64,000 bases of DNA from an uncultured Clostridia bacterium (GCA_947627135.1 CANQUV010000014.1:10533-74532), one strand, 5' to 3'; counted from the stretch's first letter, positions 18,104-62,042 are shown. Translations and numbers: made by a program. The notes: generated by a model from the sequence alone, not told the origin.

Positions 18104-18120
18104 AGCTCCTTTCTAAAAAA

Positions 18121-19515: not shown

Positions 19516-19677
19516 ATTTTGCTCCCCTTTCCTTAATACATTAAAGTCAACATTATCCAATTATAATTTTAGAGCAAAAAGTACAAATAGTCAATAAAAA
19601 ATCATACAATGATTTAAAAATACTTTTTTATAAGCAAAAAAGCTGTCTAAAAACAAATAAACTTTCAAGACAGCTCT

Positions 19678-28264: not shown

Positions 28265-28395
28265 AACTTTCCTCCTTAATTCACGAATTCCCCTATTTAA
28301 GTACTTATAATATGTTATTATACTACAAACCGTATTTAAATACAATCATTTTTTACAATCTTAAATCTTTTTCTGTTTTAAAAAAATATTTTTTA

Positions 28396-32719: not shown

Positions 32720-34258
32720 TTAGATTTTTATCATTAAAAAGCTTTGTGCTCCTAATGTAACTTTGCCGCTTTTTACTTTGCTTTCCTTGATTTTATATAC
32801 AACTTCTTTAACAGGAGTATCAAAATCAACAGAAGCGTCATTTAAGGTTGGATTTACAAATATTACAAACTGACCTCTTTTATATACAAAAGGAAACTTA
32901 TTTTCCTCTGCATAAAGTACTTCAAAATCTCCGTCTGCTTGTAAATCTTCATTTTCATGACGAAGCTTAATAATATCCGTTACAACCTTATAAATGCTGT
33001 CAGGGTCGTCTTTCTGATTTTCAACAGTGGGTGCGTCTGAAGATGGGTCAACCGGTAAATATGGATTATCTGATGTGGAAAAGCCCAGGTTTTTTCCGCT
33101 GTTCCACTGCATCGGAGTACGGGTTCCCGTTCTGCTGAAACCTCCTTCTTTACTTACAAGTCCTTTTATATATTTCATTCCGATTTCATCACCGTAATAA
33201 AGAAACGGCACTCCCGGAAGTGTAAAAATTACTGCATCACCAAGCTTAATTGCTTCCTTGTCAAGATAATTTGTCAGTCGGGGTGTATCGTGATTACAGG
33301 TAAACATACTGATATATCCGTTGCCTTTTGTTTTTTCATAACCTTCAAGATAAGTTCTTGTAAAGTCTTTAATGTTGCCTTTTCCGTTTTTATTGAAAAA
33401 TCCCTTGTTTTCTCCGTCCTCTGAAAAACGGAAAAGATAGTTGTTGGGATTTTTAAAGTGGTCAAGACAAAAATCCATGTGAAATCCTGCATTATTAATA
33501 GCTCGTACCGGATTAGACCATTCTGCTACAAGTGCAGCCTCCGGGTATTCCTCATCAAGCATTTTGCGGATACCTCTCCAGATTTTTGCAGTTGCAATTT
33601 TTTCTTCATCATTTTTTACAAGTGAATCAGCCATATCCACTCTGAATCCGTCTGCCCCCATATCAAGCCAAAAACGCATTATATCCTTTAACGCCTCAAC
33701 AGTTTTAAGACAGTCGGGATGGTCGCAGGGCAGCTGCCATGCAGGGTGTGTAATATCGTAAAAACCATAATTTAATGCAGGCTGTGAACTGAAAAAGTTT
33801 ACAAGATAATTGCTGTCTCTTTCACATATTCCGCACATTAATCGGTATTGCGGAGGTGCTTCCCATACACTGTCTGTAAAAATATATCTGTTTGACAAAT
33901 CATTTTTTTCAGCTTTCTTTGCCTGTTGAAACCACGGGTGTGTATCTGATGTATGCCCCGGAACTAAATCAAGCAAAATTTTAATTTCTTTTTCGTGAGC
34001 AACTTTAAAAAGCCTGACAATATCTTCATTTGTTCCGTAACGCTCTGCTACTTTTTTATAGTTCCTTACATCGTATCCTGCATCCATAAATGGTGAATCA
34101 TATATGGGATTTATCCAAATCGCATTACAGCCTAACCCTTTTACATAGTCGAGCTTTTGTATAATACCCTCTATATCCCCGATACCGTCGCCGTTAGTAT
34201 CATAAAAGCTTTGAGGATAAATTTCATAAAACACTGCGTTTTTTAACCACTTAGGCAT
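32720..34258 (-). CDS. cytoplasmic GH13 alpha-glucosidase / oligo-1,6-glucosidase-like enzyme
   Basis: GH13 regions: YEIYPQSFYDTNGDGIGD, DLVPGHTS, GFRVDMAD, and NHD in FTCNHDTPR. No signal peptide. ATG at 34258 after AAAGGA. Confidence 0.8.
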   Translation of the reverse strand: MPKWLKNAVFYEIYPQSFYDTNGDGIGDIEGIIQKLDYVKGLGCNAIWINPIYDSPFMDAGYDVRNYKKVAERYGTNEDIVRLFKVAHEKEIKILLDLVPGHTSDTHPWFQQAKKAEKNDLSNRYIFTDSVWEAPPQYRLMCGICERDSNYLVNFFSSQPALNYGFYDITHPAWQLPCDHPDCLKTVEALKDIMRFWLDMGADGFRVDMADSLVKNDEEKIATAKIWRGIRKMLDEEYPEAALVAEWSNPVRAINNAGFHMDFCLDHFKNPNNYLFRFSEDGENKGFFNKNGKGNIKDFTRTYLEGYEKTKGNGYISMFTCNHDTPRLTNYLDKEAIKLGDAVIFTLPGVPFLYYGDEIGMKYIKGLVSKEGGFSRTGTRTPMQWNSGKNLGFSTSDNPYLPVDPSSDAPTVENQKDDPDSIYKVVTDIIKLRHENEDLQADGDFEVLYAEENKFPFVYKRGQFVIFVNPTLNDASVDFDTPVKEVVYKIKESKVKSGKVTLGAQSFLMIKI

Positions 34259-34468
34259 AAAAGAACATCCTTTCAAAACAGGTAAATACCCTTAATTATT
34301 TTAATAAAGTTTACCATTTTATTATAACTATTGCAATATATTTTTCATCTCCAAAATAAATTTTATTTTATAAAACATGTAAATTTTAGTTACCAATAAT
34401 ATTCACTTGCAAATTTTAATAATTCATCATAATATGGTAACAGAAACTTTATTTTTAAGGAGATAATT

Positions 34469-44270: not shown

Positions 44271-44810
44271 TTATAAAAAAGATGCAACCAGATGCTCAAA
44301 AATAGAAACTGATGCCCAACCGCATATTAATCCTAAACATGCCCCTGCCACTACATCAGACAAATAATGTACCCTTAAATAAAGTCTTGAAAATCCTATA
44401 AGCAAAGCTAAACACAATACACAAAGTATTACAGGCATACTACATCTAAGCATTGTCACTCCAACAACTGAAAAGGATGCCGTTGTATGTCCGGATGGGA
44501 ATGAATAATACTTTGGCTTATTGATTATCTGTTCTTCTTCTTTTAAATCGTGACAAGGTCTTGTTCTTCTTACAATATGTTTAATAATAATCTCGCCCAT
44601 TAAATGTGCAATAGCAAGTCCAAAAATAATATTTGCACCTGTTGCCCGCCATGGAGCATTTATTAAAAAGGGCAAACATATAGCAAACCATACAAGTCCC
44701 ATATTGCCGGCAGTTGAAACAGCAATCATTATTTTATTTTTTATCGGTGAATGCAGTTTAGCAATTCGCTCAATAACTACATCATCGATATTCTGAATGC
44801 GTTTAAACAT
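44271..44810 (-). CDS. PAP2-family lipid phosphatase (undecaprenyl-diphosphate / phosphatidate phosphatase-like)
   Basis: Tripartite motif KHIVRRTRP ... PSGH ... SRLYLRVHYLSD. The start is uncertain: ATG at 44810 versus TTG at 44831. Confidence 0.8.
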   Translation of the reverse strand: MFKRIQNIDDVVIERIAKLHSPIKNKIMIAVSTAGNMGLVWFAICLPFLINAPWRATGANIIFGLAIAHLMGEIIIKHIVRRTRPCHDLKEEEQIINKPKYYSFPSGHTTASFSVVGVTMLRCSMPVILCVLCLALLIGFSRLYLRVHYLSDVVAGACLGLICGWASVSIFEHLVASFL

Positions 44811-45043
44811 AAAAATACCCCAATATATCAATTAAAATAATTATATCACAATAATCACAATTTGAAAAGTATAACTATATATAATTTTGGAAATCATTAA
44901 ATGTTATAAAAAAGAAACTCATTTACTATAAAAAAAATTATTATATTATATAAAATATAAAAAGAAACATTAATATATAAAAACCGATGAATTGTTAAAT
45001 TAATTACAAATCATCGGTTTTGCTTTTTTGTTCACAATTAAAA

Positions 45044-46494: not shown

Positions 46495-48489
46495 TCATTC
46501 ATTTGCATTTTCATCATTAGAGTTACCTTCAGTTGCGTGTAAAGTTTCAGGTTTAGATTGTTCAACAGGAGGTGTTTGACTATCGGTTGTATTTGATGAA
46601 GACGAATTATTACCATTATCAGAGCCGGTTGCAGTATTACTGCTTGGCGACGAATCTGTTACCGTACTGTTTTCTCCTGCGTTATTATTGTTATTATTGC
46701 TAACCTCTGATTGAGAATCGTTATCTCCGCTGTTATCAGCTGTATCTTGTTTCGGTTTGTCTGAACTGTCATCTTCCGATGAATTACTTGTTACATTTGC
46801 CGCTCCTTCGGGTCTTTTCCTGTGTGTACCTTCGTCAGAATACTGAACATAGTGACCTTCGGTAAGGCTGTAATGTGAGCTTGGAAGTTCTTCTCTTGAA
46901 ACCTCGTTACCGTTTTTATATAATACTCTGTAAGATGTGGTATCGTAGCTTTCTCCGCTTACTATATCATAGTTTTCAGAGTATGTTACTATATCATCAT
47001 AGCTTGGATCTTGATATCCGTAAATAGTACAAGACAACTCTCTGCCGTTAATTGTACATTCCATAAACATTTGATAATCTGTTATATTTTTTAATTTTAA
47101 ATCTAATCCGGGATAGTCAATAGTTGCATCAAGACCTGCCGGAACATACACAGACGCCCAAAAATGATTATGTCTTTCTACGATTTCCATATTTGCAAAA
47201 ACTGCTGCATTGTATATAGTACTGCTTGCCTGGCAAAGTCCGCCCCCGATACCTTGGGTCATACTTCCGTCTGAAATCACTCCGGCAGGTAAATACCCGT
47301 TTGACTCAAGATTGCTGTCGCCTGTACATTCATTAAACGACCATGTCTCACCCGGCTCAATTATTGAACCGTTGCAGGCTGATAAAGCAGTTCCCATATT
47401 TAAGGTTGCATTTTCAGTATTAACAGAAGTAGTTGTGAAATATGAAAGCGGCACTATGTTTTTCTTAACCATTTCTTTTGTAATTTTCGGTTCAACCACA
47501 TCAATCTTTGCGGATATTACTCCTGTTTTTTGCTTTGCATTTATAAATGCTTTTATTGCGGCAACAAGGTCTTCTTTATTGGTTTTATAGCCAACTGAAC
47601 CGTCTTCATATTCAAATTTATTCTCTGCAAAAGGAGTAAATTTTGATACGCGTGCATTTTTCACTTCAACATCTGTATCTTCTGCAATCTTGTTTGAAAC
47701 CGCTTCTATTGAATCCTCAACAACAGTTGCCGTAACGGTGTACATATCGCTATAATGACCTTGATCATCTGTTGTTGGTTGAGTTACATCAATTTCTCCC
47801 TTATGAGCATCTTCACAATATTTTTTTGCCTGATTAAGAATTTCTTCTATGTTATAAGTATATGTAAAATCTTTTGAAGCAAATTCATAGCTTTTTTCAT
47901 TTGCTTCAACAGTCATGGTAAAATCATCTGCAAATTTTGACTTATTATCCTCTAAAAGCTTTTTTGCTTCATCATAAGTTTTTCCGGAAATATCTATGCC
48001 GGAAATTTGTACTCCGGATAAAAATGTGAACTCTCCCTCTTCATTTACAATAGGTCCCACTGTTTCTTCAAATGGATTAGGTATAATTCCGTTTGAAGCA
48101 AGCTGCCATAAAACTACTCCTACTGCCGCTATAACCACAACAGCAGCACTTGTTATAATAAAGAGAAGCTTGTGTTTAACAAAAAAGTTCTTTTTTTCAG
48201 ATGTTGAATATCTTTTTTTCTGTTTTGAATTTTCTTCAGAACTTTCACTTGAATTTTCAATACTTTTAACATCTTGAACAAATTCTATTTCTTTCGTAGG
48301 TTTATCGGATATATATTTATCAGTTTCTAAATTGGAACTGATTTGATTTATATCGGTTTTATCATCTTCAGACTTTTCATCATCATTGTAATCAGGTTTA
48401 ATAAAACCTGCACTTTCGGAAGAAATATCTACAAATTCTTCTTGAGTATTGTCAAAATCACTTTGACCGTTTAAGTTTTTATCCTGCAT
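46495..48489 (-). CDS. VanW-family protein (TM anchor, PG-binding-like region, VanW domain, S/N-rich C-terminal tail)
   Basis: VanW core GGGLCQASSTIYNAAVFANMEIVERHNH. TM segment LLFIITSAAVVVIAAVGVVLW. Confidence 0.8.
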   Translation of the reverse strand: MQDKNLNGQSDFDNTQEEFVDISSESAGFIKPDYNDDEKSEDDKTDINQISSNLETDKYISDKPTKEIEFVQDVKSIENSSESSEENSKQKKRYSTSEKKNFFVKHKLLFIITSAAVVVIAAVGVVLWQLASNGIIPNPFEETVGPIVNEEGEFTFLSGVQISGIDISGKTYDEAKKLLEDNKSKFADDFTMTVEANEKSYEFASKDFTYTYNIEEILNQAKKYCEDAHKGEIDVTQPTTDDQGHYSDMYTVTATVVEDSIEAVSNKIAEDTDVEVKNARVSKFTPFAENKFEYEDGSVGYKTNKEDLVAAIKAFINAKQKTGVISAKIDVVEPKITKEMVKKNIVPLSYFTTTSVNTENATLNMGTALSACNGSIIEPGETWSFNECTGDSNLESNGYLPAGVISDGSMTQGIGGGLCQASSTIYNAAVFANMEIVERHNHFWASVYVPAGLDATIDYPGLDLKLKNITDYQMFMECTINGRELSCTIYGYQDPSYDDIVTYSENYDIVSGESYDTTSYRVLYKNGNEVSREELPSSHYSLTEGHYVQYSDEGTHRKRPEGAANVTSNSSEDDSSDKPKQDTADNSGDNDSQSEVSNNNNNNAGENSTVTDSSPSSNTATGSDNGNNSSSSNTTDSQTPPVEQSKPETLHATEGNSNDENANE

Positions 48490-48838
48490 AATGACCCCCG
48501 AGAATAAATTATTTTGTTAAATTTGCAATTTACAAATATAATTCATAAACAAAGATATATATTATATATTACTATATATTTTTAAAAAAATAAAGCATTA
48601 ATTTTAAATTTTAACTTAAATTTTTATAAGAAAATATATTAAATATGACAAATAAGTTTAGCAATTTTTACCACAGTTATTTTAATAAACTTACTAAAAA
48701 CATGATGATAAGATCAATTTACTTTTAATTTTTCATAAAACGAAATGCAAATTTATAATTATTATTGAAAAATATTGAAAATTGTATATAATTATATTTA
48801 TGTAAGCTTAATTTACTAAATTATTAAGGAATAATTAA

Positions 48839-49999
48839 ATGAAAATTTTAATTTTAACAGCTTCAACCGGCGGCGGACATAAAAGTGCTGCCGCTGCATT
48901 ATTGGACACAATTAAAAAGACCTCTACTGATACTGTTGTTGAAATTGAAGACGGTCTTAAATATTGCGGAAAACTGTATAACAAACTTATATGCGAAGGA
49001 TATGTGGTTTTAGCAACCAAGACTCCGAGACTTTACGGAAAGCTTTACAACATAAGCGATAAGGAAAGCACAATTAATTCTATTTGCAACAATATAAACT
49101 ATAAGGAAGGTAAAAAACTCATCTCCCTTTTTAATGAAAAAAAACCTGATGTTGTAATTTCCTGCCATGCATTTGTAACAACAATGCTTGCCATGCTAAA
49201 ACGCAAAAATAAGATTTCAGTTCCTATAATAAGTCTTATTACCGATTTTGCTCCGCACAGAACTTATTTTGCTTCGGGAATAGATGCTTATGTTACATCA
49301 AACGAAAATATGCTTGAAGAAATAGAAAACTACAACTTAATTTCAGCCGATAAAATTCATGCTTTGGGAATACCGATTGCCGATAAGTTTTATAAGCCGC
49401 AAAACAAAAAGCAAATTGCCAAAAAATTGGAGTTTGACATCAACAAACCTACTGTTTTGTTGATGTCCGGCAGCTTTGGGGTTTCTGAAGTTCTTGATTT
49501 TTACGAAAGTCTTATGCTTACAGACGTTGATTGTCAGTGTATTGTTATAACAGGTCACAATAAAAAACTATACAATGAATTTAGCAAATATTTAAGTAAT
49601 CCTAATGTATCCCAAAAGCCTACAAGACTGTTTGAATTTATTTCAAATGTTGAAGAATATATGCATTTTGCCGATTTAGTAGTTACCAAGCCCGGTGGAC
49701 TTACTGTTACGGAAAGTCTCGCCTGCTCATTACCTATGGCAATTTACAATGCAATTCCGGGGCAGGAAAACGAAAATGCACAATATCTGATCAGTCAAAA
49801 TGTTGCCATATCCCTTAATGATGCCAAAACAGGCGGAAAACAAATTGCAGAACTTATTAAAGATAAAGATAAACTAAACGAAATGCGTGAAAACTGCAAA
49901 AAAATAAGAAAAGAAAATTCTGCTCTTAATATATTCCGTTTGGCGCAAAACCTTGTAGAACAAAGTCAAATTAATAGTAAATTCGGAGAACAGGTATGA
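48839..49999 (+). CDS. MGDG-synthase/GT28-family diacylglycerol glycosyltransferase (UgtP/YpfP-like)
   Basis: MKILILTASTGGGHKSAAAAL N-terminal motif. C-terminal GT28 motif TKPGGLTVTESLA. Confidence 0.8.
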   Translation: MKILILTASTGGGHKSAAAALLDTIKKTSTDTVVEIEDGLKYCGKLYNKLICEGYVVLATKTPRLYGKLYNISDKESTINSICNNINYKEGKKLISLFNEKKPDVVISCHAFVTTMLAMLKRKNKISVPIISLITDFAPHRTYFASGIDAYVTSNENMLEEIENYNLISADKIHALGIPIADKFYKPQNKKQIAKKLEFDINKPTVLLMSGSFGVSEVLDFYESLMLTDVDCQCIVITGHNKKLYNEFSKYLSNPNVSQKPTRLFEFISNVEEYMHFADLVVTKPGGLTVTESLACSLPMAIYNAIPGQENENAQYLISQNVAISLNDAKTGGKQIAELIKDKDKLNEMRENCKKIRKENSALNIFRLAQNLVEQSQINSKFGEQV

Positions 50000-51270
50000 A
50001 AAAATTATTTTTTCTTTTTTTGACTGCTTTAATTACAGCCACATTTTTATGTTCCTGCAACACAGATCCTTCAAAAGTTTCTGAAAACGATAATTTAATT
50101 ACAGATATTCAGCTGGATTCTTCAGAAAAAAATTATAATTATCAAGAGGGTAATACTTCTCCTCCTACGTCTTATACTGAATATCAGGCAAATAGCTTAA
50201 ACTTTGCCTTCAATTTGTTAAAAAACAGCTACATTCCTAATCAAAATACAGCTGTATCACCTGCCAATACTTATTTACAGCTTTCACTTATAGCAAACGG
50301 TACTGCAAAAAATACAAAATCAGAAATATCTTCTGTTTTAGGAAGTAACTTAAACTCGGACAATTTAAATCAATGCTCACAGTATTTTCAAACAAGAATA
50401 AACAGCTTTACTGACAAAAAAGATAATAAATATTCTCTTTACCTTAAAAACTTCTTCTGGTGTAATGATACCTTTGATATAAAAAGAGATTTTCTTAAAA
50501 CTGACAAAACTTACTATGATATTGAAATTTACAGATTTTTGTTTTCTGATGAAAATGCACTTTCTAAAATAAATAATCGTACTGCTGATTTTACAAATCA
50601 AGATATTACAATAAAAGAAATAAATAAAGACGATCATATTTATTTTACAAGTGCTGCTGAAATAAAGGACAATTGGCTTGAAGATTATGCAGAGAAAAAC
50701 ATAGTTAAAGATACCTTCAGCGGAACACAAAAAAAATCTGTTGCAGAATTTTATGCAAGCAGTGAATTTTTACTTAAGGACAGCACAAGCACCGGATTTG
50801 TTAAAAGCTTTAAAAACACTCCTCTCAAAATATGTGTTATGGTTCCAAATGATGATGTATCCTTATCTGATTATTTAAAAAACTTAAGCAGTGAAAAATT
50901 TATTAATTTTCTTAACAGTTTAAATCCAACAACACGATGTAATGCTTATTTGCCTGCATTCTCAAAAAGTGAATCCGTTGATATAACAGACGCTCTTAAA
51001 AATATGGGTATTAATTTGCTTTTTACCGATGAGGCAAATATTTTCAATATTACGCAATCGGAAAATGTATATGTAAACAAAATTGTAGAAAGCATAGATT
51101 TCAGTATATCCGAAAACGGTATTTCTTCTGACATCATAAATGAAAAAACAGCTTCAAATACTGAACTTAACAATGATACTGATGTTAAAGTAAACAAGCC
51201 ATTTATTTATGCAATAATTGATAATGAAAGTAATATTCCTATTTATTTGGGGATCGTGGAGAATTTATGA
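49996..51270 (+). CDS. serpin-family lipoprotein
   Basis: Lipobox FLCSC. Serpin N-terminal pattern NFAFNLLK......NTAVSPANTYLQLSLIANGT. C-terminal signature VKVNKPFIYAIIDNESNIPIYLGIV (compare VKFNKPFVF in alpha-1-antitrypsin). ATGA overlaps at both ends. Confidence 0.8.
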   Translation: MKKLFFLFLTALITATFLCSCNTDPSKVSENDNLITDIQLDSSEKNYNYQEGNTSPPTSYTEYQANSLNFAFNLLKNSYIPNQNTAVSPANTYLQLSLIANGTAKNTKSEISSVLGSNLNSDNLNQCSQYFQTRINSFTDKKDNKYSLYLKNFFWCNDTFDIKRDFLKTDKTYYDIEIYRFLFSDENALSKINNRTADFTNQDITIKEINKDDHIYFTSAAEIKDNWLEDYAEKNIVKDTFSGTQKKSVAEFYASSEFLLKDSTSTGFVKSFKNTPLKICVMVPNDDVSLSDYLKNLSSEKFINFLNSLNPTTRCNAYLPAFSKSESVDITDALKNMGINLLFTDEANIFNITQSENVYVNKIVESIDFSISENGISSDIINEKTASNTELNNDTDVKVNKPFIYAIIDNESNIPIYLGIVENL

Positions 51271-52352
51271 AACTAAAGAAAAAAATTTCAGGCAAGTTGA
51301 TATTTAATATATTAGTTGTTTTTCTGTGTTTGTTTATCATTTTTTACTTTTTTTACAGCGAAAACGGTTTAAACGATTTACTTCATTCATCCATTCAGAT
51401 AAGCGTTTTATGGATTTTGGCTGCAATCGGATTTCAGCTTCTGTATATGTTTATTGAGGCTTTTATTATCTATTATTTTATAAAGGCCGATTACGCAAAT
51501 TTCACTTTTAGAGACGCCGTTAAAGTTTCTTTTGTGGGACTTTTTTGGTGTGCGGTAACGCCTTCTTCAACAGGGGGACAGCCAATGCAGATTTATCTGC
51601 TTCATTCAATGGGTATTGATATAGGTTACAGTACCTCCAGATTATTGCAGAAATTCCTTGTATATCAGGTGGTTTTAACCAGCATCAGCATTATGGCGTT
51701 TCTTTATAAACTTGATTATTTTATAAATGCCATGTCGTCACCTATAATTGTAATATTTATAATTGTTGGATTTGGCTCACAGCTTATAATAACAGGTGCA
51801 TTAATGCTGGTATCCTTTAAACCTATTATTACTAAAAAATTTATTTTCTTTATTGCTAAAATTCTTTCTAAAATTAAATTACTTAAAAATATAGATAAAA
51901 AAACTTCTCATATTCAAAAACAACTTGATTTATTTCACGAAAGCAACAAGACGCTTTATAAGCATAAAAAAGCTTTAGCAATAACTGCTATTTTGACATT
52001 TATTCAGTTTATTGCCATGTTTACCGTTCCATACTGCGTTTATCGCAGTTTAGGATTAAATGAAGCTACCCCGCTTGATATGATAAGTTCACAAGCCTTT
52101 GTAAACCTTGTTTCAGGTATGATTCCGATCCCCGGCGCTTCAGGTGCAGCAGAGCTTGGATTTACTGCATTTTTCAACGGATTTTTCACTCCTGAAACCT
52201 TAAAGAGCGCAACTCTTATCTGGAGAATGATCAACTATTACGGCGTTGTAATTTGTACTGCTCCGTTTGCTTATATTACAAACGGAAAAACCAGAGGTGC
52301 AAAAATTGAAAAAACAATAGAAGATGAATTTTCAAAAGAAAATAATAAATAA
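51267..52352 (+). CDS. flippase-like / lysylphosphatidylglycerol-synthase TM-domain family (UPF0104) membrane protein
   Basis: 361 aa with ~8 TM helices and a basic N-terminus MKLKKKISGK. Typical partner of lipid glycosyltransferases. Confidence 0.55.
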   Translation: MKLKKKISGKLIFNILVVFLCLFIIFYFFYSENGLNDLLHSSIQISVLWILAAIGFQLLYMFIEAFIIYYFIKADYANFTFRDAVKVSFVGLFWCAVTPSSTGGQPMQIYLLHSMGIDIGYSTSRLLQKFLVYQVVLTSISIMAFLYKLDYFINAMSSPIIVIFIIVGFGSQLIITGALMLVSFKPIITKKFIFFIAKILSKIKLLKNIDKKTSHIQKQLDLFHESNKTLYKHKKALAITAILTFIQFIAMFTVPYCVYRSLGLNEATPLDMISSQAFVNLVSGMIPIPGASGAAELGFTAFFNGFFTPETLKSATLIWRMINYYGVVICTAPFAYITNGKTRGAKIEKTIEDEFSKENNK

Positions 52353-52417
52353 ACAAAGTCATTTTTAAAACTTTATTTTTAAAACTTTATTTTTTAATTA
52401 ATAATTATTAAGTCATA

Positions 52418-52452
52418 TAAAACCTCCCTCTTAAATTAGAGGGAGGTTTTTG
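52418..52452 (+). terminator. intrinsic terminator after the three-gene operon
   Basis: Stem AAAACCTCCCTC / GAGGGAGGTTTT followed by T. Confidence 0.75.
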
Positions 52453-52611
52453 CGGGTAATTTTCCCAGTTTTATTACAGGTTTATTACAGGTTTAAATCT
52501 TGAGATCGACTGCGAGTTTTTTATGTTTTTCTATTAAAAACGAAAGTACCTATATTTTATATAATCCTCATTAAATATAGCACAACCGAATCAGATATAC
52601 AAATTTACCGT

Positions 52612-54942
52612 TTACTCATTATCAATAAGCTTTATTGCTATTGCTGTTATATCGTCGTCATGACCGTCGTTTCTCCTTACTGCGGCTTCCTTTACAATTT
52701 GCTGCGCAAGTTCAACCGTACTTGCCTCATTCCATGTTTTTATTAATGATTCAAGCCACATATCGTCGTTTTGAAACAAGGCTCCGTCTGATATCATTAC
52801 TATTAAATCTCCTGCCGACAAACCAATTGTCTCTTTTGAAAATTTAATATCCGTTAAAATCCCCGCAGGCAGAGATTCTGTCTGCTTTTTTACTAAATGC
52901 CCGTTTTTCTTGATGTATGTTAGCGGTGCACCTGCTTTCATAAGCGTAACCTTTCCTGTAAACAGGTTTATATCTGAAACATCTAAAGTTGCAAGTGATT
53001 CATCTTCAGATTTCACCATAAGCGCTGCATTTACTACCTGTAAAGCGCTGTCATAAGACAGTCCTGATTTACAAAGCTTTGTCATTATGGAAACTGCCAT
53101 ATTTCCGTCAACTGCGGCTCTGCCTCCTGTTCCCATTCCATCTGAAATCATGGCTACCATGCTCCCGAAGCTGTTGTTAAAATAATTTAAACTGTCACCG
53201 CACAGCTTTCCGTTATTGCAAACATGTTGTGCTGAACCAATCTCTACATCAAAATACGGCATTTCGTTAAATGTCATTCTGATTCGATTTCCAAGCTCTG
53301 TAATACAGGGAGTATCAAATCTTCTTCCGCAGCATTTGGATATCTCATTCATTAAAATACTTTTTCTGATTTTTTCTTTATAGTTTCTGGCAAGCTCAAC
53401 TTCAACTGACATTCGTCCGTTTCTATCAAGCATACAACTGCATTCCATTGGCACAAGTCCGTTGTAATGCAAATAATCCTCCACTCTGTTTGCACTTTCT
53501 GTATCATAAGTTATATAATTCTCAAATTCCCCCGACATATCTTTAAGAATTGAACTTAACCCTGCAAATTGTCCCGCAACAACGCTCCTTACACCTGTAA
53601 CACGCCTTTGAGCCTCCAGACAAGATAAATATTCGTTGTAATTATAGTTTACTCTATCGGCAATTTCCTGCTGTTTACAACAGTTCTTTGTAAATAATAC
53701 ATTAACTGTTTCTGCGCTAATTCTGCCTTCATTTTTAAGCGGTCCTGTCAAACGTGAAAAATCATCCTTTGTAAGTTCCTTTTGCTTATCCCAGCAATAA
53801 ACCTTTAATCCGCAATTTGTGCAAACTTCATTATTTACATTTTCATATACCCAATTCATGGTTGGAGAATAAAGCCTTTTGAGTTTGTCCGATACTTTAT
53901 TGACACAGTCGGTTACACTTTCCATAGCCTTTGATGCAAAATCCAAGCGCATAACAATATTCTGTTTAAGCGCCTCATGATTTTTAACACTTTCCGACGG
54001 CATAAATATTGCCGATACAAAGTTTCCCACCTGTTTTGGAAGTATCATAAAAACTGTTGACGCAATCAAAGTTTCTATGAACAAAGCTATAATAAGCTGA
54101 TTATCACCTGAAGCAAAGGTCATTATTGTACTGCAAATCGTAAAGGCAATTGCGCAGCCTGCTTTACCTACTCCTGCAAAAAGACCTGCCATCAGTCCTC
54201 CGAAAGCATATCCTCCGCAAAGATATGACATTGTATATGAACTCAGGCTGAATATTGAACCTGTTGCAATTCCGCTGATACTTCCTCCTGTTACATTACC
54301 GTATCTTGCGCAAAAAAGAATTATCATAACTGCAAAAATTCTGCCTATTGAAACATTTTCTACTGCTATACTGCCCAGAGATAAAATAAGAATACAGCCT
54401 GTCATTACAAGACTTGCGATCTCCTGCTGACTAAAGCTTTTAAAGGTACGTCTGGAATAGTACATTTCAGTTGTTTGCTTGAGAAAAAATGCCGCCGCTC
54501 CTGCAAGGCAGGATTCAATAACAGTTTGTGTTATCTGAGTTGTGCTTGACGTTGTAAAAGATAAAATCACCCCTGTTAAAAGTACGGGAATAAACGCTGC
54601 CAAACAGGAAAAAAGGCGGCTTTGTGCTATCTTTTTAATGTCGCTTAACATCCAACGTAAAACCCCTATTGCAATCACTATCGCCATATATCTGAAGCTG
54701 TTTCTGGGATTGAGCGTTATGTAACCCAAGCTTGTCCCGGCTACCGCCCAAACTAATTGTTTTTTAGGTACTGCTGCTGTATATGATGCACCAAACGGTG
54801 AAAGTTCTCCCATTAATGCACCCCTTGAAATTATAATACCGCACAAAAAATAAATTCCATGCATCACAACAGCTTTTACGGCTGCATAATCGTCTTTTGC
54901 ATTTTTTTTATAAGTAACCTTTGTTGATTGCCTTGCTTCCAT
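52612..54942 (-). CDS. spoIIE: stage II sporulation protein E (membrane PP2C phosphatase)
   Basis: 776 aa. About 10 N-terminal TM helices, a central regulatory region and a C-terminal PP2C domain (MISDGMGTGGRAA ... VMISDGA ... DDITAIA). Confidence 0.85.
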   Translation of the reverse strand: MEARQSTKVTYKKNAKDDYAAVKAVVMHGIYFLCGIIISRGALMGELSPFGASYTAAVPKKQLVWAVAGTSLGYITLNPRNSFRYMAIVIAIGVLRWMLSDIKKIAQSRLFSCLAAFIPVLLTGVILSFTTSSTTQITQTVIESCLAGAAAFFLKQTTEMYYSRRTFKSFSQQEIASLVMTGCILILSLGSIAVENVSIGRIFAVMIILFCARYGNVTGGSISGIATGSIFSLSSYTMSYLCGGYAFGGLMAGLFAGVGKAGCAIAFTICSTIMTFASGDNQLIIALFIETLIASTVFMILPKQVGNFVSAIFMPSESVKNHEALKQNIVMRLDFASKAMESVTDCVNKVSDKLKRLYSPTMNWVYENVNNEVCTNCGLKVYCWDKQKELTKDDFSRLTGPLKNEGRISAETVNVLFTKNCCKQQEIADRVNYNYNEYLSCLEAQRRVTGVRSVVAGQFAGLSSILKDMSGEFENYITYDTESANRVEDYLHYNGLVPMECSCMLDRNGRMSVEVELARNYKEKIRKSILMNEISKCCGRRFDTPCITELGNRIRMTFNEMPYFDVEIGSAQHVCNNGKLCGDSLNYFNNSFGSMVAMISDGMGTGGRAAVDGNMAVSIMTKLCKSGLSYDSALQVVNAALMVKSEDESLATLDVSDINLFTGKVTLMKAGAPLTYIKKNGHLVKKQTESLPAGILTDIKFSKETIGLSAGDLIVMISDGALFQNDDMWLESLIKTWNEASTVELAQQIVKEAAVRRNDGHDDDITAIAIKLIDNE

Positions 54943-56424: not shown

Positions 56425-58044
56425 TTACTTATTTGTTTTTAATATTACCGTTGATTGTTCAGGCAGGTAAAGTTTACTTTCATTTAATGTTATATGCTTT
56501 GAATTTTCTTTTGATGACGCCGCCGTTAAATCTGCCCTTATTTGTGGAGCTTCAATCATTTCAGCTGTAATTGTCAGATTTTTTTCTTCTGTACTGCTTA
56601 AATTATGAATTATCATCAGTTTACTATCATTGTATTCTACATAGTATGCTAAAATATTTTCATCTCCAAAATCCTCTGACGCAGTAATTTTTCCTCTTGC
56701 AATTTCAGGATTTTGATTTTTTATCTTAATTATCCGTTTATAAAAGTTAAGCAGTGAATATTCATCTTCCTGCTGTTGCTTGACTCCTCCCCATTGTGGG
56801 TCTGATACTATATTTTGACCGTCTACATTTATGTTGGAAGGATTTTCACTGTCCCAAATCATAGGCGTTCTGAAATTTTCATCACCAGATGATTCAGGTG
56901 CTGTCATACCGATTTCTTCTCCGTAATAAATATATGAGTTACCCGGAAACAACATATATACTGAAGCTGCCATTTTTTCAAATGAAACACCTTTGCTTCC
57001 TAAAGCATTACCGCTTCGTATCATATCGTGATTACTTAAAAACATGGCATTTATTGCGTTTTTATTTCTTTTTGTTATATTTTCATTATATTTTTCTATC
57101 TTATCCGCAAGCTTTCCGTTTTGCTCTGTTCTTACAGCATTTATAATTCCTCCGGATGTAGTTGCATATTGAAAACAAAATTGGCTGTCTATTCCCGATT
57201 TATAAATGTTGTAAATATCACCCGGAGTAGTCCAATTTTCTCCTACCATATAAATATCTTCTTTGTATTCTTTGCAGGCATTATAATACCAGTTTAGAAA
57301 CTCTTCTCCGTCTGTTGTATTGTTTGTAAAGTATTTTACAGCATCAAGCCTGAATCCTCCTACTCCTCGGTCTATCCAGAACTTTGCTATATTTAAAAAT
57401 TCTTCTCTTGTATCTTCAGAACTTAAATTCCATTCAGGCATATACGATGAAAAGTTGGATTCACACCAGTAATCACCTGCAATATGTGTATAAGCGTTTT
57501 CATTTACAGGACCGTCCTTATATTCCTCTATCTGAAAATATTTTGCATATCCGTTAAGATTGTCCTCTGCAACTTCTTTACAGGCTTGCTCAAACCAAGG
57601 ATGAAATTTTGAACAATGGTTTAATACCATATCAATTATAATTTCTATTCCCCTTTTATTACATTCTGAAACAAGCTGATCAAAATCATCTAATGTACCG
57701 AAGGTTTCATCAATCTCATAATAGTCAATTACATCATACTTATGATACGATTGAGACGGCATAATCGGAGTAAGCCAGATTGCGTCAACACCTAAATCTG
57801 TATCTGTATCGGGATTTCCGTCGTTTAAATAATCTAATTGAGATATTATCCCCTGTAAATCTCCTATACCGTTATTATCTGAATCACAAAAGGAATTAAC
57901 AAAGATCTCATAAACATTCTTGTATTTATCCTCTGAAACAGTTACCTTAATATCTTTTACCGGGTCATTATAAGATGAACAGCTTGTTAAAATGCAGCAG
58001 GCCAGTATAGATATTGCTACTAAAACGGAAATGAGTTTTTTCAT
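56425..58044 (-). CDS. GH13 alpha-amylase-family lipoprotein
   Basis: Lipobox ILTSC. GH13 regions DMVLNHCS, GFRLDAVK and SNHDMIR. Confidence 0.85.
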   Translation of the reverse strand: MKKLISVLVAISILACCILTSCSSYNDPVKDIKVTVSEDKYKNVYEIFVNSFCDSDNNGIGDLQGIISQLDYLNDGNPDTDTDLGVDAIWLTPIMPSQSYHKYDVIDYYEIDETFGTLDDFDQLVSECNKRGIEIIIDMVLNHCSKFHPWFEQACKEVAEDNLNGYAKYFQIEEYKDGPVNENAYTHIAGDYWCESNFSSYMPEWNLSSEDTREEFLNIAKFWIDRGVGGFRLDAVKYFTNNTTDGEEFLNWYYNACKEYKEDIYMVGENWTTPGDIYNIYKSGIDSQFCFQYATTSGGIINAVRTEQNGKLADKIEKYNENITKRNKNAINAMFLSNHDMIRSGNALGSKGVSFEKMAASVYMLFPGNSYIYYGEEIGMTAPESSGDENFRTPMIWDSENPSNINVDGQNIVSDPQWGGVKQQQEDEYSLLNFYKRIIKIKNQNPEIARGKITASEDFGDENILAYYVEYNDSKLMIIHNLSSTEEKNLTITAEMIEAPQIRADLTAASSKENSKHITLNESKLYLPEQSTVILKTNK

Positions 58045-58121: not shown

Positions 58122-58976
58122 TTATCCTTTAACACCGCCGGCTGTAACACCTTCAACATAATATTTTTGCATCATAAGGAAAAGTACAGTAATCGGAACT
58201 GCAACTAGTACAGAACCTGCCATAAACTGTTTAAAGTAATTTACTTTAAACTCATTGGAAACCATTAACTGCAAACCTATGGCAACAGTATAATTATCTC
58301 TGTTATCACCCATAATCAATTTACAAAGAATGAAGTCTGTCCAAGGACCGATGAATGATGTAAGAACTGTATATACTACAATCGGCTTTGACATAGGAAG
58401 TATAATCTTCCAGAAAATCTGATTTCTTGTAGCACCGTCAACTGTTGCTGCTTCGTCAAGAGCTCTGGGGATTGTATCAAAGAAGCCCTTTGAAATCTGG
58501 AATCCAAGACCTGCACCTGCACTGTAACATATAACAAGAGCAACCAGTGTTTGTGAAAGGTTCATAGCTTTAAGCAGATAGTAAATAGCAATCATTGTCA
58601 TGAAACCCGGGAACATACCCAAAATCATACCTACATTGATAAACTTTTTACGACTCTTAAATCTTAAACGGCTGAATGCGTAACTTACCATAAGAACTGA
58701 AAGTGTAGAAATTACGCAGGCACAACAAGCAACAACAAATGTGTTCAAATACCATCTTGGGAAATTAAGAGTACCTGTATTTACAAACAAATTAATATAA
58801 TTATCAAATGAATATGAATGAGGAATAAGGTATGGTACGGTTGCCAAACCCTCTGCTCTGAACGAGTGCAATACTAAATATACCAGGGGAGAAACCCATA
58901 TTATACCCAATACTGCAAGAACAATATAAATAATTGTATTAGAAATAATTCTTCTGGCTTTATAACTTTTTATCAT
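58122..58976 (-). CDS. carbohydrate ABC transporter permease (MalG-like)
   Basis: 6 TM helices. EAA loop ALDEAATVDGATRNQIFWKIILP. Confidence 0.85.
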   Translation of the reverse strand: MIKSYKARRIISNTIIYIVLAVLGIIWVSPLVYLVLHSFRAEGLATVPYLIPHSYSFDNYINLFVNTGTLNFPRWYLNTFVVACCACVISTLSVLMVSYAFSRLRFKSRKKFINVGMILGMFPGFMTMIAIYYLLKAMNLSQTLVALVICYSAGAGLGFQISKGFFDTIPRALDEAATVDGATRNQIFWKIILPMSKPIVVYTVLTSFIGPWTDFILCKLIMGDNRDNYTVAIGLQLMVSNEFKVNYFKQFMAGSVLVAVPITVLFLMMQKYYVEGVTAGGVKG

Positions 58977-60469
58977 GAGAACGCCTCCTCGTCTTTCATA
59001 GACTTAGACATATTGAATGTAATCAAGGACAAGGTTGCGCAAACAATAAATACTAAGATACCTATGGCGGCAGCAAGGTCGTAATCCTGCTGGTTCATAG
59101 TTAATTTAAACAGCCATGTTACCAAAATATCGGTGTAACCTGCCTGATAGAATCTCTCTGTTGACGGACCTCCGCCAGTTAACAGGTAAATAACATTAAA
59201 GTTATTAATATTACCTACAAACTGTGTAATAAGTGACGGTGCTGTTACAAACAGCATATAAGGTAATGTGATCTTCGTAAACTGTTTAACAGGACCTGCA
59301 CCGTCAATTCTTGCACTTTCGTACAAGTCGGCAGGAATATTCATAAGAATACCCGAAGCAGAAAGAATGGTATATGGAATACCTACCCAACAGTTAATGA
59401 TTATTACAGTAATTCTTGCCATCAATGCATTGGTATTTAGGAACTGTATCGCCACTTCCTGACCTGTTATGTCAGATAAAAGAATATTGATAGCGCCGTT
59501 TACCTGTAACATCTGGTTCATGAGAAGAAGTGATACGAACTGAGGAACAGCTATTGTAATTACAAAAAGTGTTCTCCAAAGTGATTTAAGCTTAATGCCT
59601 TTTTTATTAATCATAAGGGCAACAATCATACCCAAAATGTAGTTTGTAAATGTAGCAAAAATTGCCCAAATTATGGTCCATTGAGTAAGTTCAATAAATG
59701 TAACTCCTCTTTTACCACCTGTTGTAACATTTACAAGCTGTGAAAAGTTTTCAAATCCGACCCAAGTAAATAGTGTTCCGGGCGGCATGTGGCTCTTATT
59801 ATAATTTGTAAATGCAATTAAAATCATAAAAATCAAAGGCATTATTGTGAAAATTGCAATAAGAGTTACCGGCAAAGAAAGCATTGTAACATGGAATTTG
59901 CCGTCGAGGAAATCTTTTGTTTCCTCTTTAAATGTCATAATATGTTTTCCTTCTGATTTTAATTGCTGTAATTTATATGCTGATTTTGTATTTGTTATGT
60001 AGATAAATAATACAACAAATGTAACTGCAATAGTAACAACACTATAAAGCAGAATAAGCATTGAGTTATCGCCGAAAACAGTCTTTTTAAATGGACCGTC
60101 ATCAACTAATTGTGTTTCAACTGTACCTAATGTATTAAATTTGGAAAGGTTTGGCCAACCAAATGTAATCATAAAGTAAATATACGCTACCTCAGTAGCT
60201 AAAAACAAAAGACCTTTTATAATTTGACCTTTTGCGAAGTTTCCAAAACCAAAAATAAGGTAAGAAAGCTTTACAGCAAAATCTCCCTTAATAAATCTTG
60301 TAACGTAATTAGCTACGCCCTTACCGATACCAGTGAATAATTTTACAAAGAATCTTCCGATTGCTTTAAAGAATGCTGCCACTCTGCCCGGAAGCTTTTT
60401 AAAGAATTCTGTAAAATTATATGCAAACTTCTGGAAAGGATTAAGCTGTTTATAATCGATATATTTCAA
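58973..60469 (-). CDS. carbohydrate ABC transporter permease (MalF-like, extended N-terminus)
   Basis: EAA loop YESARIDGAGPVKQFTKITLP. 4-nt overlap with the MalG-like gene. Confidence 0.85.
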   Translation of the reverse strand: MKYIDYKQLNPFQKFAYNFTEFFKKLPGRVAAFFKAIGRFFVKLFTGIGKGVANYVTRFIKGDFAVKLSYLIFGFGNFAKGQIIKGLLFLATEVAYIYFMITFGWPNLSKFNTLGTVETQLVDDGPFKKTVFGDNSMLILLYSVVTIAVTFVVLFIYITNTKSAYKLQQLKSEGKHIMTFKEETKDFLDGKFHVTMLSLPVTLIAIFTIMPLIFMILIAFTNYNKSHMPPGTLFTWVGFENFSQLVNVTTGGKRGVTFIELTQWTIIWAIFATFTNYILGMIVALMINKKGIKLKSLWRTLFVITIAVPQFVSLLLMNQMLQVNGAINILLSDITGQEVAIQFLNTNALMARITVIIINCWVGIPYTILSASGILMNIPADLYESARIDGAGPVKQFTKITLPYMLFVTAPSLITQFVGNINNFNVIYLLTGGGPSTERFYQAGYTDILVTWLFKLTMNQQDYDLAAAIGILVFIVCATLSLITFNMSKSMKDEEAFS

Positions 60470-60665
60470 TCAGTACACTCTCCTTATGTAAGTTTGCGGA
60501 ATATTCCGTTTACTAAGTAATTTTTGTCTTGCTCCCCTTTATTTCAAAATATTATTTTTAGATAATAAATCGAAATTTCTTTAGCAAGAATACATCGTTT
60601 TATGTATTTGTTACAAATATTTTAAGATTATTTTCTATTATACCTAAATTATGTGGAAATAAAAA

Positions 60666-60702
60666 CCGTTTCAGACAGCCCCTAAAAGGGGCTGTCAAAA
60701 CG
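60666..60702 (-). terminator. intra-operon hairpin/partial terminator after the binding-protein gene
   Basis: 17-bp stem CCGTTTTGACAGCCCCT / AGGGGCTGTCTGAAACGG (one mismatch), followed by TTTTT on the minus strand. Lies between the malE-like and malF-like genes. Confidence 0.65.
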
Positions 60703-60752
60703 GAAATATACTCTAAACACTAAACTTTATAAAATGTTTTTACAAAATTACA

Positions 60753-62042
60753 TTAAACATCCTTAATGTTTGTAAGTGTTTCATTGAGAAGTTGCTTCAT
60801 AGCATCTGTGTTAGTAGGATCTGTCTTTTCTGCAATAAGCTGGTTACCTAAGTTGCCCATCGGATCCCAGAACTGATCAGCAAGATCTGCCTGTGCAACA
60901 GAATTTTCTGCCTGTGCAAGAATAGCAGAAATTGTTACATTATTCTTTACAAAATCAGACTGTGCAGCCGCTTTATTTGATGGACCCCAACCAAGTTCCT
61001 GTGCTCTTTCAAGCTGGCAATCTTCAGATGTTAAATAGTTAGCAAGAATCTGTGCTGCTCTTGGGAATTTTGCAGCAGCATTAACACCCACATACTTATA
61101 ACCGAACATTGAAACGATTTGTTTGTCTTCGCCGTTAACATTGATTGTTGGTAACTTAGCAGCTCCGTATTTATCTCCTAAAGCTGTCTGGTTTGCAACT
61201 ACATCCCATGTACCGTCAATTCCTGCTCCGCATGTTCCGCTTGAGAAACCAGATGCGATATTAGATACTTCCAATGACTGGAATGTACTTGAATAATCAT
61301 GGAATAATTTTGAGAATGCCTGCATTGTTGCAACAACATCGTCTTCATTATAATCTGTGAATTTTTGTGTTAATCCGTCTTCTTCAAGACCGTCTGTCTT
61401 TAATCCGCCTGTAAATACGAACATACATGAATAGAATCCGTTACCGGCATCCATGATGAATTTCTTTCCGGCTGCCTTACAGTCTTCAAGAATTGTTTCT
61501 AATTTAGCTTCGTCTCCTGATTTTACAACAGAATTATCATATACAAGATAATAACCGTTGTCTGCTGTTTCAGGATATGCATAAATTTTGTCGTCGATTG
61601 TAGCAGCTTCTACAACATTTGTATCATTGTTAGCTTTAACCTCGTCAGCAAAAGCAACTTCCTGAATAACCTTTGCGTTTACAAGTTTATTGATCTGATC
61701 ACTTGGAAGTCCGAATACATCGGCTGCTGTTGATGCATCGTTAAGAAGCTGTGTAGCTGCGTCACTTTCACCCTGAGCAACAACTTCAATTGAAATTTTC
61801 TTTTCCGGATAAAGAGCAACAAATGCATCGCACTGTTTCTTTAACAGATTAATTGAAGCATCAGGTCCCCAAACTTTTAACGAAATGTTATCTTCTTCAC
61901 CAAATAACGATGTATCTGTTGATGAACCTTCTCCTGAAGATCCATTTGAAGATCCTTCGCCTGTTGATGTTTGCCCACCGCAACCTGCAAATGCTGTTGC
62001 CATCATCATTACTGCGAGCAAACCTGCAATAATTTTCTTCAT
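60753..62042 (-). CDS. maltodextrin/sugar ABC transporter substrate-binding lipoprotein (MalE-like)
   Basis: Lipobox FAGCGG, an S/G-rich linker, and a type 2 periplasmic binding fold of the expected length. Confidence 0.8.
   Translation of the reverse strand: MKKIIAGLLAVMMMATAFAGCGGQTSTGEGSSNGSSGEGSSTDTSLFGEEDNISLKVWGPDASINLLKKQCDAFVALYPEKKISIEVVAQGESDAATQLLNDASTAADVFGLPSDQINKLVNAKVIQEVAFADEVKANNDTNVVEAATIDDKIYAYPETADNGYYLVYDNSVVKSGDEAKLETILEDCKAAGKKFIMDAGNGFYSCMFVFTGGLKTDGLEEDGLTQKFTDYNEDDVVATMQAFSKLFHDYSSTFQSLEVSNIASGFSSGTCGAGIDGTWDVVANQTALGDKYGAAKLPTINVNGEDKQIVSMFGYKYVGVNAAAKFPRAAQILANYLTSEDCQLERAQELGWGPSNKAAAQSDFVKNNVTISAILAQAENSVAQADLADQFWDPMGNLGNQLIAEKTDPTNTDAMKQLLNETLTNIKDV

Follow-up and report, generated by a model that had tools for sequence, protein, structure and literature searches.

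The 64,000-nt stretch of DNA analysed here (the window, to which all coordinates refer) comes from an uncultured Clostridia bacterium and carries a three-gene unit in which a lipoprotein with a serpin fold is encoded between a glycolipid glycosyltransferase (GT) and a flippase-like membrane protein. The unit is best explained as an envelope operon that Ruminococcus-type Clostridia have long passed on by vertical inheritance, built in the manner of synthase–X–flippase glycolipid operons. In a collection holding one genome per species, the GT–serpin pair occurs in 50 species and the full triad in 32; the triad is thus not peculiar to one strain, an outcome that would have counted against the original prediction, made from the sequence of the window alone. 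The serpin has kept its fold, and the hinge, shutter and breach residues associated with inhibition are broken. Hence, the window serpin and most of its clade are probably not protease inhibitors.

Layout of the three-gene unit

The unit comprises three open reading frames (ORFs) on the plus strand together with the following signals; AF2 denotes an AlphaFold2 model.

48839–49999, plus strand: GT, a UgtP/MGDG-synthase-type (GT28) glycolipid glycosyltransferase, 386 residues (ORF call, Pfam)
49996–51270, plus strand: serpin-fold lipoprotein with degenerate hinge and shutter, 424 residues (ORF call, Pfam, AF2)
51267–52352, plus strand: MprF-flippase-domain-like membrane protein (UPF0104/LPG_synthase_TM), 361 residues (ORF call, Pfam)
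48765–48792, plus strand: best sigma-70-like promoter candidate, TTGAAA-16-TATAAT, 11 of 12 matches (prediction)
49985–49988, plus strand: serpin Shine–Dalgarno site GGAG, 7 nt before the serpin ATG
49996–49999, plus strand: ATGA overlap of GT stop and serpin start (sequence)
51258–51261, plus strand: flippase Shine–Dalgarno site GGAG, 5 nt before the flippase ATG
51267–51270, plus strand: ATGA overlap of serpin stop and flippase start (sequence)
52424–52447, plus strand: intrinsic-terminator-like hairpin CCTCCCTC/GAGGGAGG, 8 bp and GC-rich, followed by TTTTT at 52448–52452

Both ATGA overlaps lie exactly where they had been predicted, and the hairpin and T-run fall inside the terminator proposed at 52418–52452. 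Each downstream gene also has its own GGAG, so at the level of sequence the translational coupling proposed for the three genes holds. The promoter candidate, directly upstream of the GT, is the top sigma-70-like site in 48400–52700. Separate promoters for the three genes would have spoken against the prediction; promoter-like matches within the unit do not exceed those in shuffled sequence (27 versus 23.4 ± 5.0). With overlapping junctions, Shine–Dalgarno sites and neither an internal promoter signal nor an internal terminator, the unit has the layout of a single, translationally coupled operon, and we infer that the three genes are transcribed together. The flippase overlap is kept across the window's clade, even by the serpin remnant described below.

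Glycosyltransferase and flippase-like protein

The first gene is of the GT28/MGDG-synthase type, as predicted, with an N-terminal MGDG_synth domain (2.2e-30; 106.4 bits against a gathering cutoff of 25) and a C-terminal Glyco_tran_28_C domain (1.7e-12; 48.1 bits against 22). Its top sequence match in the PDB is 9wde, a 'processive diacylglycerol beta-glucosyltransferase' (1.2e-35), and it also matches MGD1 (4wyi; 1.2e-21). Against the NCBIfam diglucosyl-diacylglycerol synthase model NF010135, the UgtP/YpfP equivalog, it reaches 216 bits, below the cutoff of 500. By these matches the GT is a relative of the processive diacylglycerol glucosyltransferases and not an equivalog. It is present in all 70 related loci described below. 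In nine of them (L028, L030, L072, L074, L079, L080, L100, L102 and L112) the tblastn segments cover query residues 1–252 and 260–377 and lie ~250 bp apart, indicating an insertion of ~80 residues between the two domains.

The third gene was likewise predicted correctly as UPF0104/LPG-synthase-TM and flippase-like: it scores above cutoff against both Pfam LPG_synthase_TM (2.8e-43; 149 bits against 33.4) and TIGR00374, 'flippase-like' (79.2 bits against 43.2). The equivalog model GlcN_PG_flip (NF053789) gives 46 bits, below its cutoff of 320. Hence, by sequence the protein is a member of the UPF0104/MprF-flippase-domain family lying outside the GlcN-PG equivalog. A search of PDB sequences returned no match for it. 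PADLOC matched none of the GT, serpin and flippase, and a reading of the unit as anti-phage defence was dropped on that ground.

The arrangement recurs in gut and rumen bacteria

A search of 5.8 billion proteins placed the serpin in a tight family of 13 clusters at 47–100% identity, beyond which came more distant serpins. Contigs bearing serpins at 71%, 54% and 48% identity have the GT–serpin–flippase order, flanked by VanW/SpoVAD and SpoIIE. At 30–33% identity, two serpins lie directly behind an MGDG_synth gene, one of the two in an unrelated neighbourhood; the serpins at 27–29% identity are canonical and have no GT linkage. Locus scans of the one-genome-per-species collection were pattern-based and non-exhaustive: a scan with a single-protein query gave no match and alignment-based profiles succeeded, returning 33 serpin loci and 80 flippase loci. 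Mapping by tblastn with ORF extraction yielded 70 distinct GT loci.

GT–serpin–flippase: 37 distinct loci
GT–serpin with SpoIIE directly next: 15 distinct loci
GT–serpin, contig ending before the flippase can be judged: 5 distinct loci
GT–flippase without serpin: 13 distinct loci

All clade serpins with upstream DNA (57 loci) stand behind a GT. The gap between the two genes has a median of 3 bp, is 25 bp or less in 50 of the 57 loci and becomes an overlap in 23; the serpin-to-flippase gap has a median of 9 bp. Tight, co-directional junctions hold down to 26–35% serpin identity, and the GT–serpin pair is intact despite different flanks (L005 and L023) or an inverted SpoIIE (L029, L049 and L062). 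Neither a deacetylase, in any related locus inspected, nor a conserved cognate protease gene near the serpin, in the loci inspected, was seen. The records are assigned to Ruminococcus, Ruminococcaceae, Acutalibacteraceae, Oscillospiraceae, Clostridium sp. CAG:964 and several Candidatus genera, and come from the rumen and from the gut of rabbit, chicken, horse, mouse and human. R. intestinalis NSJ-71 and Ruminococcus sp. JL13D9 are cultured carriers.

Two observations concern the flanks. A sigma factor of the extracytoplasmic function (ECF) type and a small zinc-finger or unknown, anti-sigma-like protein are encoded co-directionally upstream of GT–serpin in L005 (3498–4441) and L023, and the same arrangement precedes an unlinked serpin with a canonical hinge in L006 (3897–4984) and L007; these neighbours hint at envelope-stress control of this serpin group. 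In L017 (6735–8985), SpoIIE is split into three tblastn segments in shifted frames, reflecting either a disrupted gene or errors in a metagenome-assembled genome.

The middle gene encodes an intact serpin-fold lipoprotein

The middle ORF passed the serpin profile test decisively, as the original prediction had it: Pfam finds the Serpin family only (PF00079; 1.2e-51; 176.5 bits against 27), over profile positions 3–369 of 370. The AF2 model is confident (mean predicted local distance difference test score (pLDDT) 92.3; predicted template-modelling (TM) score 0.90) and supports a serpin fold, which is defined by three sheets, about nine helices and an exposed reactive-centre loop. Its top Foldseek match is native tengpin (2pee_A; E 7.5e-36; TM score 0.89), which is also the top sequence match (~1e-39). 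All of the top 50 Foldseek matches are serpins; the matches include miropin (5ncs), TBG (2ceo) and a biliverdin-binding serpin (7rbw).

The protein begins with MKK, a hydrophobic stretch and the lipobox that had been predicted, recognized here by the pattern [LVI]-x-[GAS]-C.

49996–50058, plus strand: signal peptide and lipobox L18-C19-S20-C21, with the Cys21 codon at 50056–50058

All 47 aligned family members have Cys21, every GT-linked serpin has a lipobox of the form L-x-[SAG]-C, and in 56 loci the ORF is full-length and includes both signal peptide and lipobox. In 10 close pairs the serpin dN/dS is 0.06–0.19 (0.18 against L001), compared with 0.03–0.09 for the GT and 0.02–0.14 for the flippase. 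The serpin is thus the fastest-evolving of the three genes, and these sequence comparisons show it to be held in an intact, native-type fold by purifying selection. Its GC content of ~0.29 is slightly under that of its neighbours.

Inhibitory features have been lost

Inhibitory serpins share a hinge consensus at P17–P9, E-[EKR]-G-[TS]-x-(A/G/S)4 (PMC2770083, PMC8233489), an empirical rule. The unlinked relatives of the window serpin, and tengpin, read E-x-G-T-[KR]-A-[GA]-A-V-T at this place; the window serpin reads E-N-G-I-S-S-D-I-I and so departs from the consensus.

51112–51183, plus strand: hinge and reactive-centre loop, E373–D396, with P15 at G375 (alignment)

The departure is general among linked serpins. 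Hinge positions were counted in 56 GT-linked and 8 unlinked serpins, and the remaining residues in 52 hinge-degenerate linked and the 8 unlinked ones. Residue numbers are those of alpha-1-antitrypsin (A1AT), whose reference sequence was verified at 14 landmark positions.

P14 Thr/Ser: linked 2/56, unlinked 7/8
P17 Glu: linked 9/56, unlinked 7/8
At least one charged residue in P12–P9: linked 45/56, unlinked 0/8
P10 Lys/Glu/Asp: linked 31/56, unlinked 0/8
His334: hinge-degenerate linked 0/52 (Gln/Glu instead), unlinked 7/8
Asn186: hinge-degenerate linked 8/52, unlinked 8/8
Ser56: hinge-degenerate linked 17/52, unlinked 8/8
Lys290: hinge-degenerate linked 4/52, unlinked 7/8
Glu342: hinge-degenerate linked 9/52, unlinked 7/8

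With Asn at 56, Ser at 186, Glu at 334 and Ala at 290, the window serpin has neither the shutter (Ser53, Ser56, Asn186 and His334) nor the breach bridge (Glu342–Lys290) of an inhibitor. The fold-core residues Trp194, Phe208, Gly344, Pro369 and Phe370 are invariant in linked and unlinked groups alike. The reactive-centre loop varies in length and has a mean pairwise identity of 0.14, against 0.32 for the core; its pLDDT in the model is ~68–87. No conserved P1 residue or loop length is found among the linked serpins. A near-canonical, A/G-rich hinge, G-V-K-A-G-A-A-T, is present in the GT-linked triads L028, L030, L080 and L102.

Because hinge, shutter and breach residues are all broken, the window serpin is probably non-inhibitory, and would be expected to give negative results in assays against elastase, trypsin, subtilisin and chymotrypsin. 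The original prediction had implied a working protease inhibitor; the hinge and shutter sequences speak against it.

A surface specific to the clade

Two regions set the linked serpins apart.

50059–50184, plus strand: N-terminal extension, residues 22–63, with cap motif N33-L34-I35 and aromatic motif Y47...P57..Y60..Y63
50374–50397, plus strand: helix-D face C127, Y130, F131 and R134, aligning to A1AT 92–99

The first is an N-terminal insert of the pattern Y-x-[YF]-x(5-6)-P-x-x-Y-x-x-[YF], in which the counterparts of Y47, P57, Y60 and Y63 are conserved at 85%, 100%, 98% and 87% in linked serpins and are gaps or other residues in unlinked ones. It follows a (D/N)-L-(I/M) motif, with L34 nearly invariant, that is the counterpart of the tengpin cap N40-L41-M42, and the extension is modelled at a pLDDT of 80–91. 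In tengpin the N terminus lies along helix D, in contact with it, and keeps the protein trapped in its native state (PMC1905895), and helix D is the classic cofactor site of serpins. C127, Y130, F131 and R134 on this helix make up the second region; they are conserved at 81–100% in linked serpins, and unlinked serpins differ. D225 and L228, which flank the breach Trp, complete the signature. The conserved patch was placed on secondary-structure elements.

The boundary of the clade is borne out by a profile search run exhaustively over 1.84 billion representatives, when the top 62 hits are compared with the next 88.

N-terminal signature: 59 of the top 62, 5 of the next 88
Canonical hinge: 5 of the top 62, 75 of the next 88
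His334: 7 of the top 62, 67 of the next 88

About 10 of the 62 signature-clade representatives retain an A/G-rich hinge. Since some of the serpins that bear the signature and are linked to a GT keep such a hinge, GT linkage and signature surface are older than the loss of inhibitory features.

Four metagenomic proteins carry tandem serpin domains, two or three per polypeptide: P0054 (1154 residues), P0067 (757), P0136 (775) and P0190 (827), of which P0054 and P0067 have the hinge E-H-G-V-S-A-A-A-A. They had been candidates for Rosetta-stone fusions of GT and serpin; Pfam shows that they are multi-serpin proteins, and they are therefore no evidence for GT–serpin linkage.

Gains and losses of the serpin and the flippase

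The history of the unit was read from a neighbour-joining tree of the GT (100 bootstraps, midpoint-rooted). Loci with GT and serpin only form one exclusive clade (100/100), as would be expected had the flippase left the locus once. Their genomes carry a solitary LPG_synthase_TM paralogue of ~40% identity elsewhere, at L105 (4896–6155; Ruminococcus sp. JL13D9, NZ_CP162392.1), L098, L111, L116 and L123. The neighbours of these paralogues are unrelated (an AMP-binding enzyme, a thioesterase, CBS, Exo_endo_phos and a sigma factor), and the idea that the relocated copy in JL13D9 belongs to another lipid operon was rejected on that account.

Loci without a serpin are nested within triad clades at least twice: L042 and L046 group exclusively with the window (100/100), and L065, L066 and L068 with triad L041 (96/100). 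L042 and L046 are the window's two closest relatives. In L042 (Ruminococcus sp. HAN024, JAFLSJ010000021.1), whose GT and flippase are 87% and 90% identical to those of the window, a 180-bp in-frame serpin remnant of ~60 codons survives at 6003–6188. It has two internal deletions, joins residues ~174–203 to ~395–424 and lacks a start codon, and its ATGA junction with the flippase is still there. L046, its sister, has a clean 36-bp gap between GT and flippase. Among the GT–flippase loci a remnant was found in L042 only; the 190–305-bp gaps of L085, L087 and L088 contained nothing significant.

In basal lineages GT and flippase are directly coupled, with gaps of −20 to +1. This suggests that GT–flippase is the older pair and that the serpin was inserted once, long ago, on a tree whose midpoint root is insecure. 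Relatives in which GT and flippase are adjacent and the serpin a recent insertion would have spoken against the original prediction. Relatives with the two genes adjacent exist, but the serpin is not a recent arrival, because those near the window are recent deletions, one with a remnant. Recent horizontal insertion was likewise rejected, the GC content of the serpin being near that of its neighbours and the gene ancient in the lineage.

Proposed role of the serpin and alternatives

We tentatively favour, at somewhat less than even confidence, an envelope-glycolipid module in which the serpin is an extracytoplasmic accessory of the binding or chaperone type, acting through its N-terminal motif and helix-D surface. 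The GT, at the cytoplasmic face, would make a hexosyl-diacylglycerol glycolipid, which the MprF-flippase-like protein would transfer to the outer leaflet. The serpin-fold lipoprotein would be tethered there through lipidated Cys21, and its surface of N-terminal aromatic motif and helix D could bind or chaperone a partner, which might be the glycolipid once flipped, a polymer assembled on that lipid, or a protein at the membrane surface. With the inhibitory apparatus gone and fold and surface conserved, the conserved role is likely to reside in the clade-specific surface. Protease inhibition was probably ancestral and later dispensed with, since a few basal members keep a near-canonical hinge. 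The most ambitious form of this reading, a first prokaryotic family of non-inhibitory serpins that acts as a membrane-tethered partner of glycolipid biogenesis and has abandoned ancestral inhibition in most lineages, is possible, if doubtful.

Several points weigh against this assignment. VanW, SpoVAD and SpoIIE, which are unrelated, are also syntenic, so adjacency alone is weak evidence of a functional link, and we know of no role for the serpin fold in lipid biogenesis. At least two lineages do without the serpin while retaining GT and flippase, and one large clade does without the flippase at this locus; the three proteins are thus not an obligate complex. Gly at P15 and a hydrophobic residue at P14 have been conserved, and together with the tengpin-like N-terminal cap they may leave some conformational mobility. 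Moreover, the near-canonical hinges of triads L028, L030, L080 and L102 imply that GT linkage predates hinge loss, and the coupling may originally have served co-expression of an inhibitor.

In the main rival reading, which is rather unlikely, the serpin is still a protease-directed surface shield, either an inhibitor with an unconventional hinge or a cleavable decoy loop. It would share the operon only as part of a common programme of envelope defence, directed at host proteases, antimicrobial peptides or bile, with no physical or biochemical link to the lipid. Every characterised bacterial serpin inhibits, the A/G-rich hinge persists in basal GT-linked members and in the minority of signature-clade representatives counted above, the N-terminal motif that traps the native state is kept, and the loop shows the hypervariability seen in inhibitors that take part in an arms race. 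The hexSDF operon discussed below confers antimicrobial resistance, and ECF sigma and anti-sigma-like genes precede GT–serpin in L005 and L023 and an unlinked canonical serpin in L006 and L007. Against a shield, however, hinge, shutter and breach are dismantled together in 52 of the 56 linked serpins, the window's included; the P10 position that is Lys, Glu or Asp in more than half of them would be buried upon loop insertion; and a conserved P1 residue, a conserved loop length and a cognate protease gene nearby were all missing from the loci inspected.

Less likely still is a purely historical linkage, in which the serpin landed once between GT and flippase, was carried along in a slowly rearranging region and now has a role unrelated to glycolipids, perhaps at the cell surface or in sporulation. 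SpoVAD, VanW, GT and SpoIIE are syntenic in the same genomes though not co-transcribed, the basal GT–flippase pairs are directly coupled without a serpin, and serpin and flippase have been lost independently. This account is hard to dismiss because unrelated neighbours too are syntenic, but it sits poorly with junctions that stay tight down to the most divergent linked serpins, often as overlaps, with a clade serpin that is never away from a GT, and with a GT–serpin pair that survives rearrangement of its flanks. That the serpin is a decaying relic, a pseudogene in the making after losing inhibition, is very improbable: it is missing from L046 and from L065, L066 and L068, reduced to a remnant in L042 and evolves fastest of the three genes, but 56 loci have an undamaged ORF complete with signal peptide and lipobox, its fold core and clade signature show little or no variation, AF2 models it with confidence, and the dN/dS values nearly exclude decay.

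Significance

The functions of bacterial serpins have been described as enigmatic. The present clade, of ~60 clusters at 50% identity from Ruminococcus-type bacteria of gut and rumen (at least 50 species), is a candidate for the first well-delimited family of non-inhibitory prokaryotic serpins and offers a concrete case in which to seek a non-inhibitory serpin function in bacteria. Natural controls exist in the strains that have lost the serpin, in relatives with a near-canonical hinge and in cultured carriers. Surveys of the gut 'serpinome' that equate each serpin gene with anti-protease activity would over-count this clade. The arrangement also suggests that Gram-positive glycolipid and lipoteichoic-anchor pathways include a new accessory component.

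Other features of the window

Further genes of the window lie on the minus strand.

44271–44831, minus strand: PAP2-family lipid phosphatase adjoining SpoVAD, conserved in the window, L001 and L004
42429–44228, minus strand: 599-residue protein with an N-terminal zinc ribbon, three tandem 18-residue repeats (ENQVPENTADNSVNETKA), a single transmembrane segment and a large extracellular portion that no Pfam family matches
35964–38780, minus strand: 938-residue ORF with no Pfam family at E ≤ 1e-5
16937–19560, minus strand: MBOAT membrane O-acyltransferase followed by a DHHW/AlgX-like protein
26990–28345, minus strand: second DHHW gene, 8 kb off
56425–58044, 32720–34276 and 58122–62042, minus strand: two alpha-amylase genes next to an ABC sugar-uptake set

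The PAP2 phosphatase, near the glycolipid operon, may be relevant to lipid-carrier or phosphatidylglycerol-phosphate metabolism. The MBOAT–DHHW pair is DltB/PatA-like and suggests O-acylation of a cell-surface polymer, which would be another envelope-modification system in the window. One alpha-amylase is a lipoprotein with a SusG_C domain, and the ABC set consists of two permeases and a solute-binding protein; amylases and sugar uptake fit a starch-utilising Ruminococcus-type organism.

Comparison with known systems

That a serpin between a GT and a flippase is not explained by known pathways, as the original prediction remarked, is still so. The arrangement is real and conserved; a literature search for a serpin in an operon with a glycosyltransferase found no relevant report.

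Among serpins, the closest counterpart is tengpin of Thermoanaerobacter tengcongensis (PDB 2PEE, 2PEF and 2VH4; PMC1905895), which shares the N-terminal extension along helix D, its cap N40-L41-M42 corresponding to N33-L34-I35. Tengpin, however, is a proven inhibitor with the canonical hinge G-T-K-A-G-A-V-T and His334, both of which the window serpin lacks, whereas the window serpin has the extra aromatic insert, the lipobox and the GT linkage. The characterised bacterial serpins, namely tengpin, miropin, the siropins, the Bifidobacterium longum serpin and chloropin, are all inhibitors. Miropin, from Tannerella forsythia, is a lipoprotein. Like the window serpin, cell-surface-associated miropin, the siropins and the B. 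longum serpin belong to host-associated organisms, and their protective roles have been described (PMC8233489, PMC6718151); unlike it, these three are active inhibitors with canonical hinges, and none is reported in a glycolipid operon. The serpins of R. flavefaciens, dockerin-borne components of the cellulosome, are a different case.

The loss of the hinge consensus from a preserved fold is matched among non-inhibitory eukaryotic serpins (ovalbumin, HSP47, PEDF, maspin, CBG/TBG and the biliverdin-binding serpin), in which function has moved to binding surfaces, although none of them is a lipoprotein or linked to lipid synthesis. To our knowledge, no non-inhibitory serpin has yet been characterised from a prokaryote; for one Streptomyces group, a lack of inhibition has only been suggested (PMC8233489).

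As a lipid pathway, the unit can be set beside several systems. UgtP/YpfP and LtaA, the latter a transporter of the major facilitator superfamily (MFS), form the glycolipid-anchor pathway of Bacillus and Staphylococcus. There, too, a GT of the processive diacylglycerol type, to which the window GT is most similar, is followed by a dedicated lipid translocator, but no serpin is involved, the translocator belongs to the MFS and not to UPF0104, and the window GT falls under the equivalog cutoff. The P. aeruginosa gpgSDF operon encodes a glucosaminyl (GlcN)-phosphatidylglycerol synthase, a deacetylase and a UPF0104 flippase (PMC12713373). It has the same order of synthase, X and UPF0104 flippase, and the window flippase matches the GlcN_PG_flip model weakly; GpgS, however, is a GT4 enzyme whose substrate is phosphatidylglycerol, and the deacetylase in position X is cytoplasmic.

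Together with gpgSDF, the closest parallel is hexSDF of Clostridioides difficile, which encodes the MGDG-synthase-like GT HexS, the polysaccharide deacetylase HexD and the MprF-like flippase HexF; its aminoglycolipid product confers protection from daptomycin and bacitracin (PMC10128005, PMC11898633). Both are three-gene Clostridia operons that begin with an MGDG-synthase-type GT, which here can be likened to HexS by family type and gene order, and end with a stand-alone MprF-flippase-domain protein. In both, the accessory protein in the middle is proposed to act outside the membrane. In the window a serpin-fold lipoprotein stands where hexSDF has its deacetylase, which gives no grounds for assuming aminoglycolipid chemistry, and there is no adjacent two-component regulator. 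HexF is non-essential for lipid synthesis, which may be compared with the flippase that one clade has dispensed with at the locus. The outline common to hexSDF and gpgSDF, a lipid GT first and a stand-alone MprF-like flippase last in the same direction, is thus present in the window with a serpin in place of the deacetylase, and both operons bear out the view, taken from the sequence at the outset, that a GT and a flippase-like protein are a familiar pairing.

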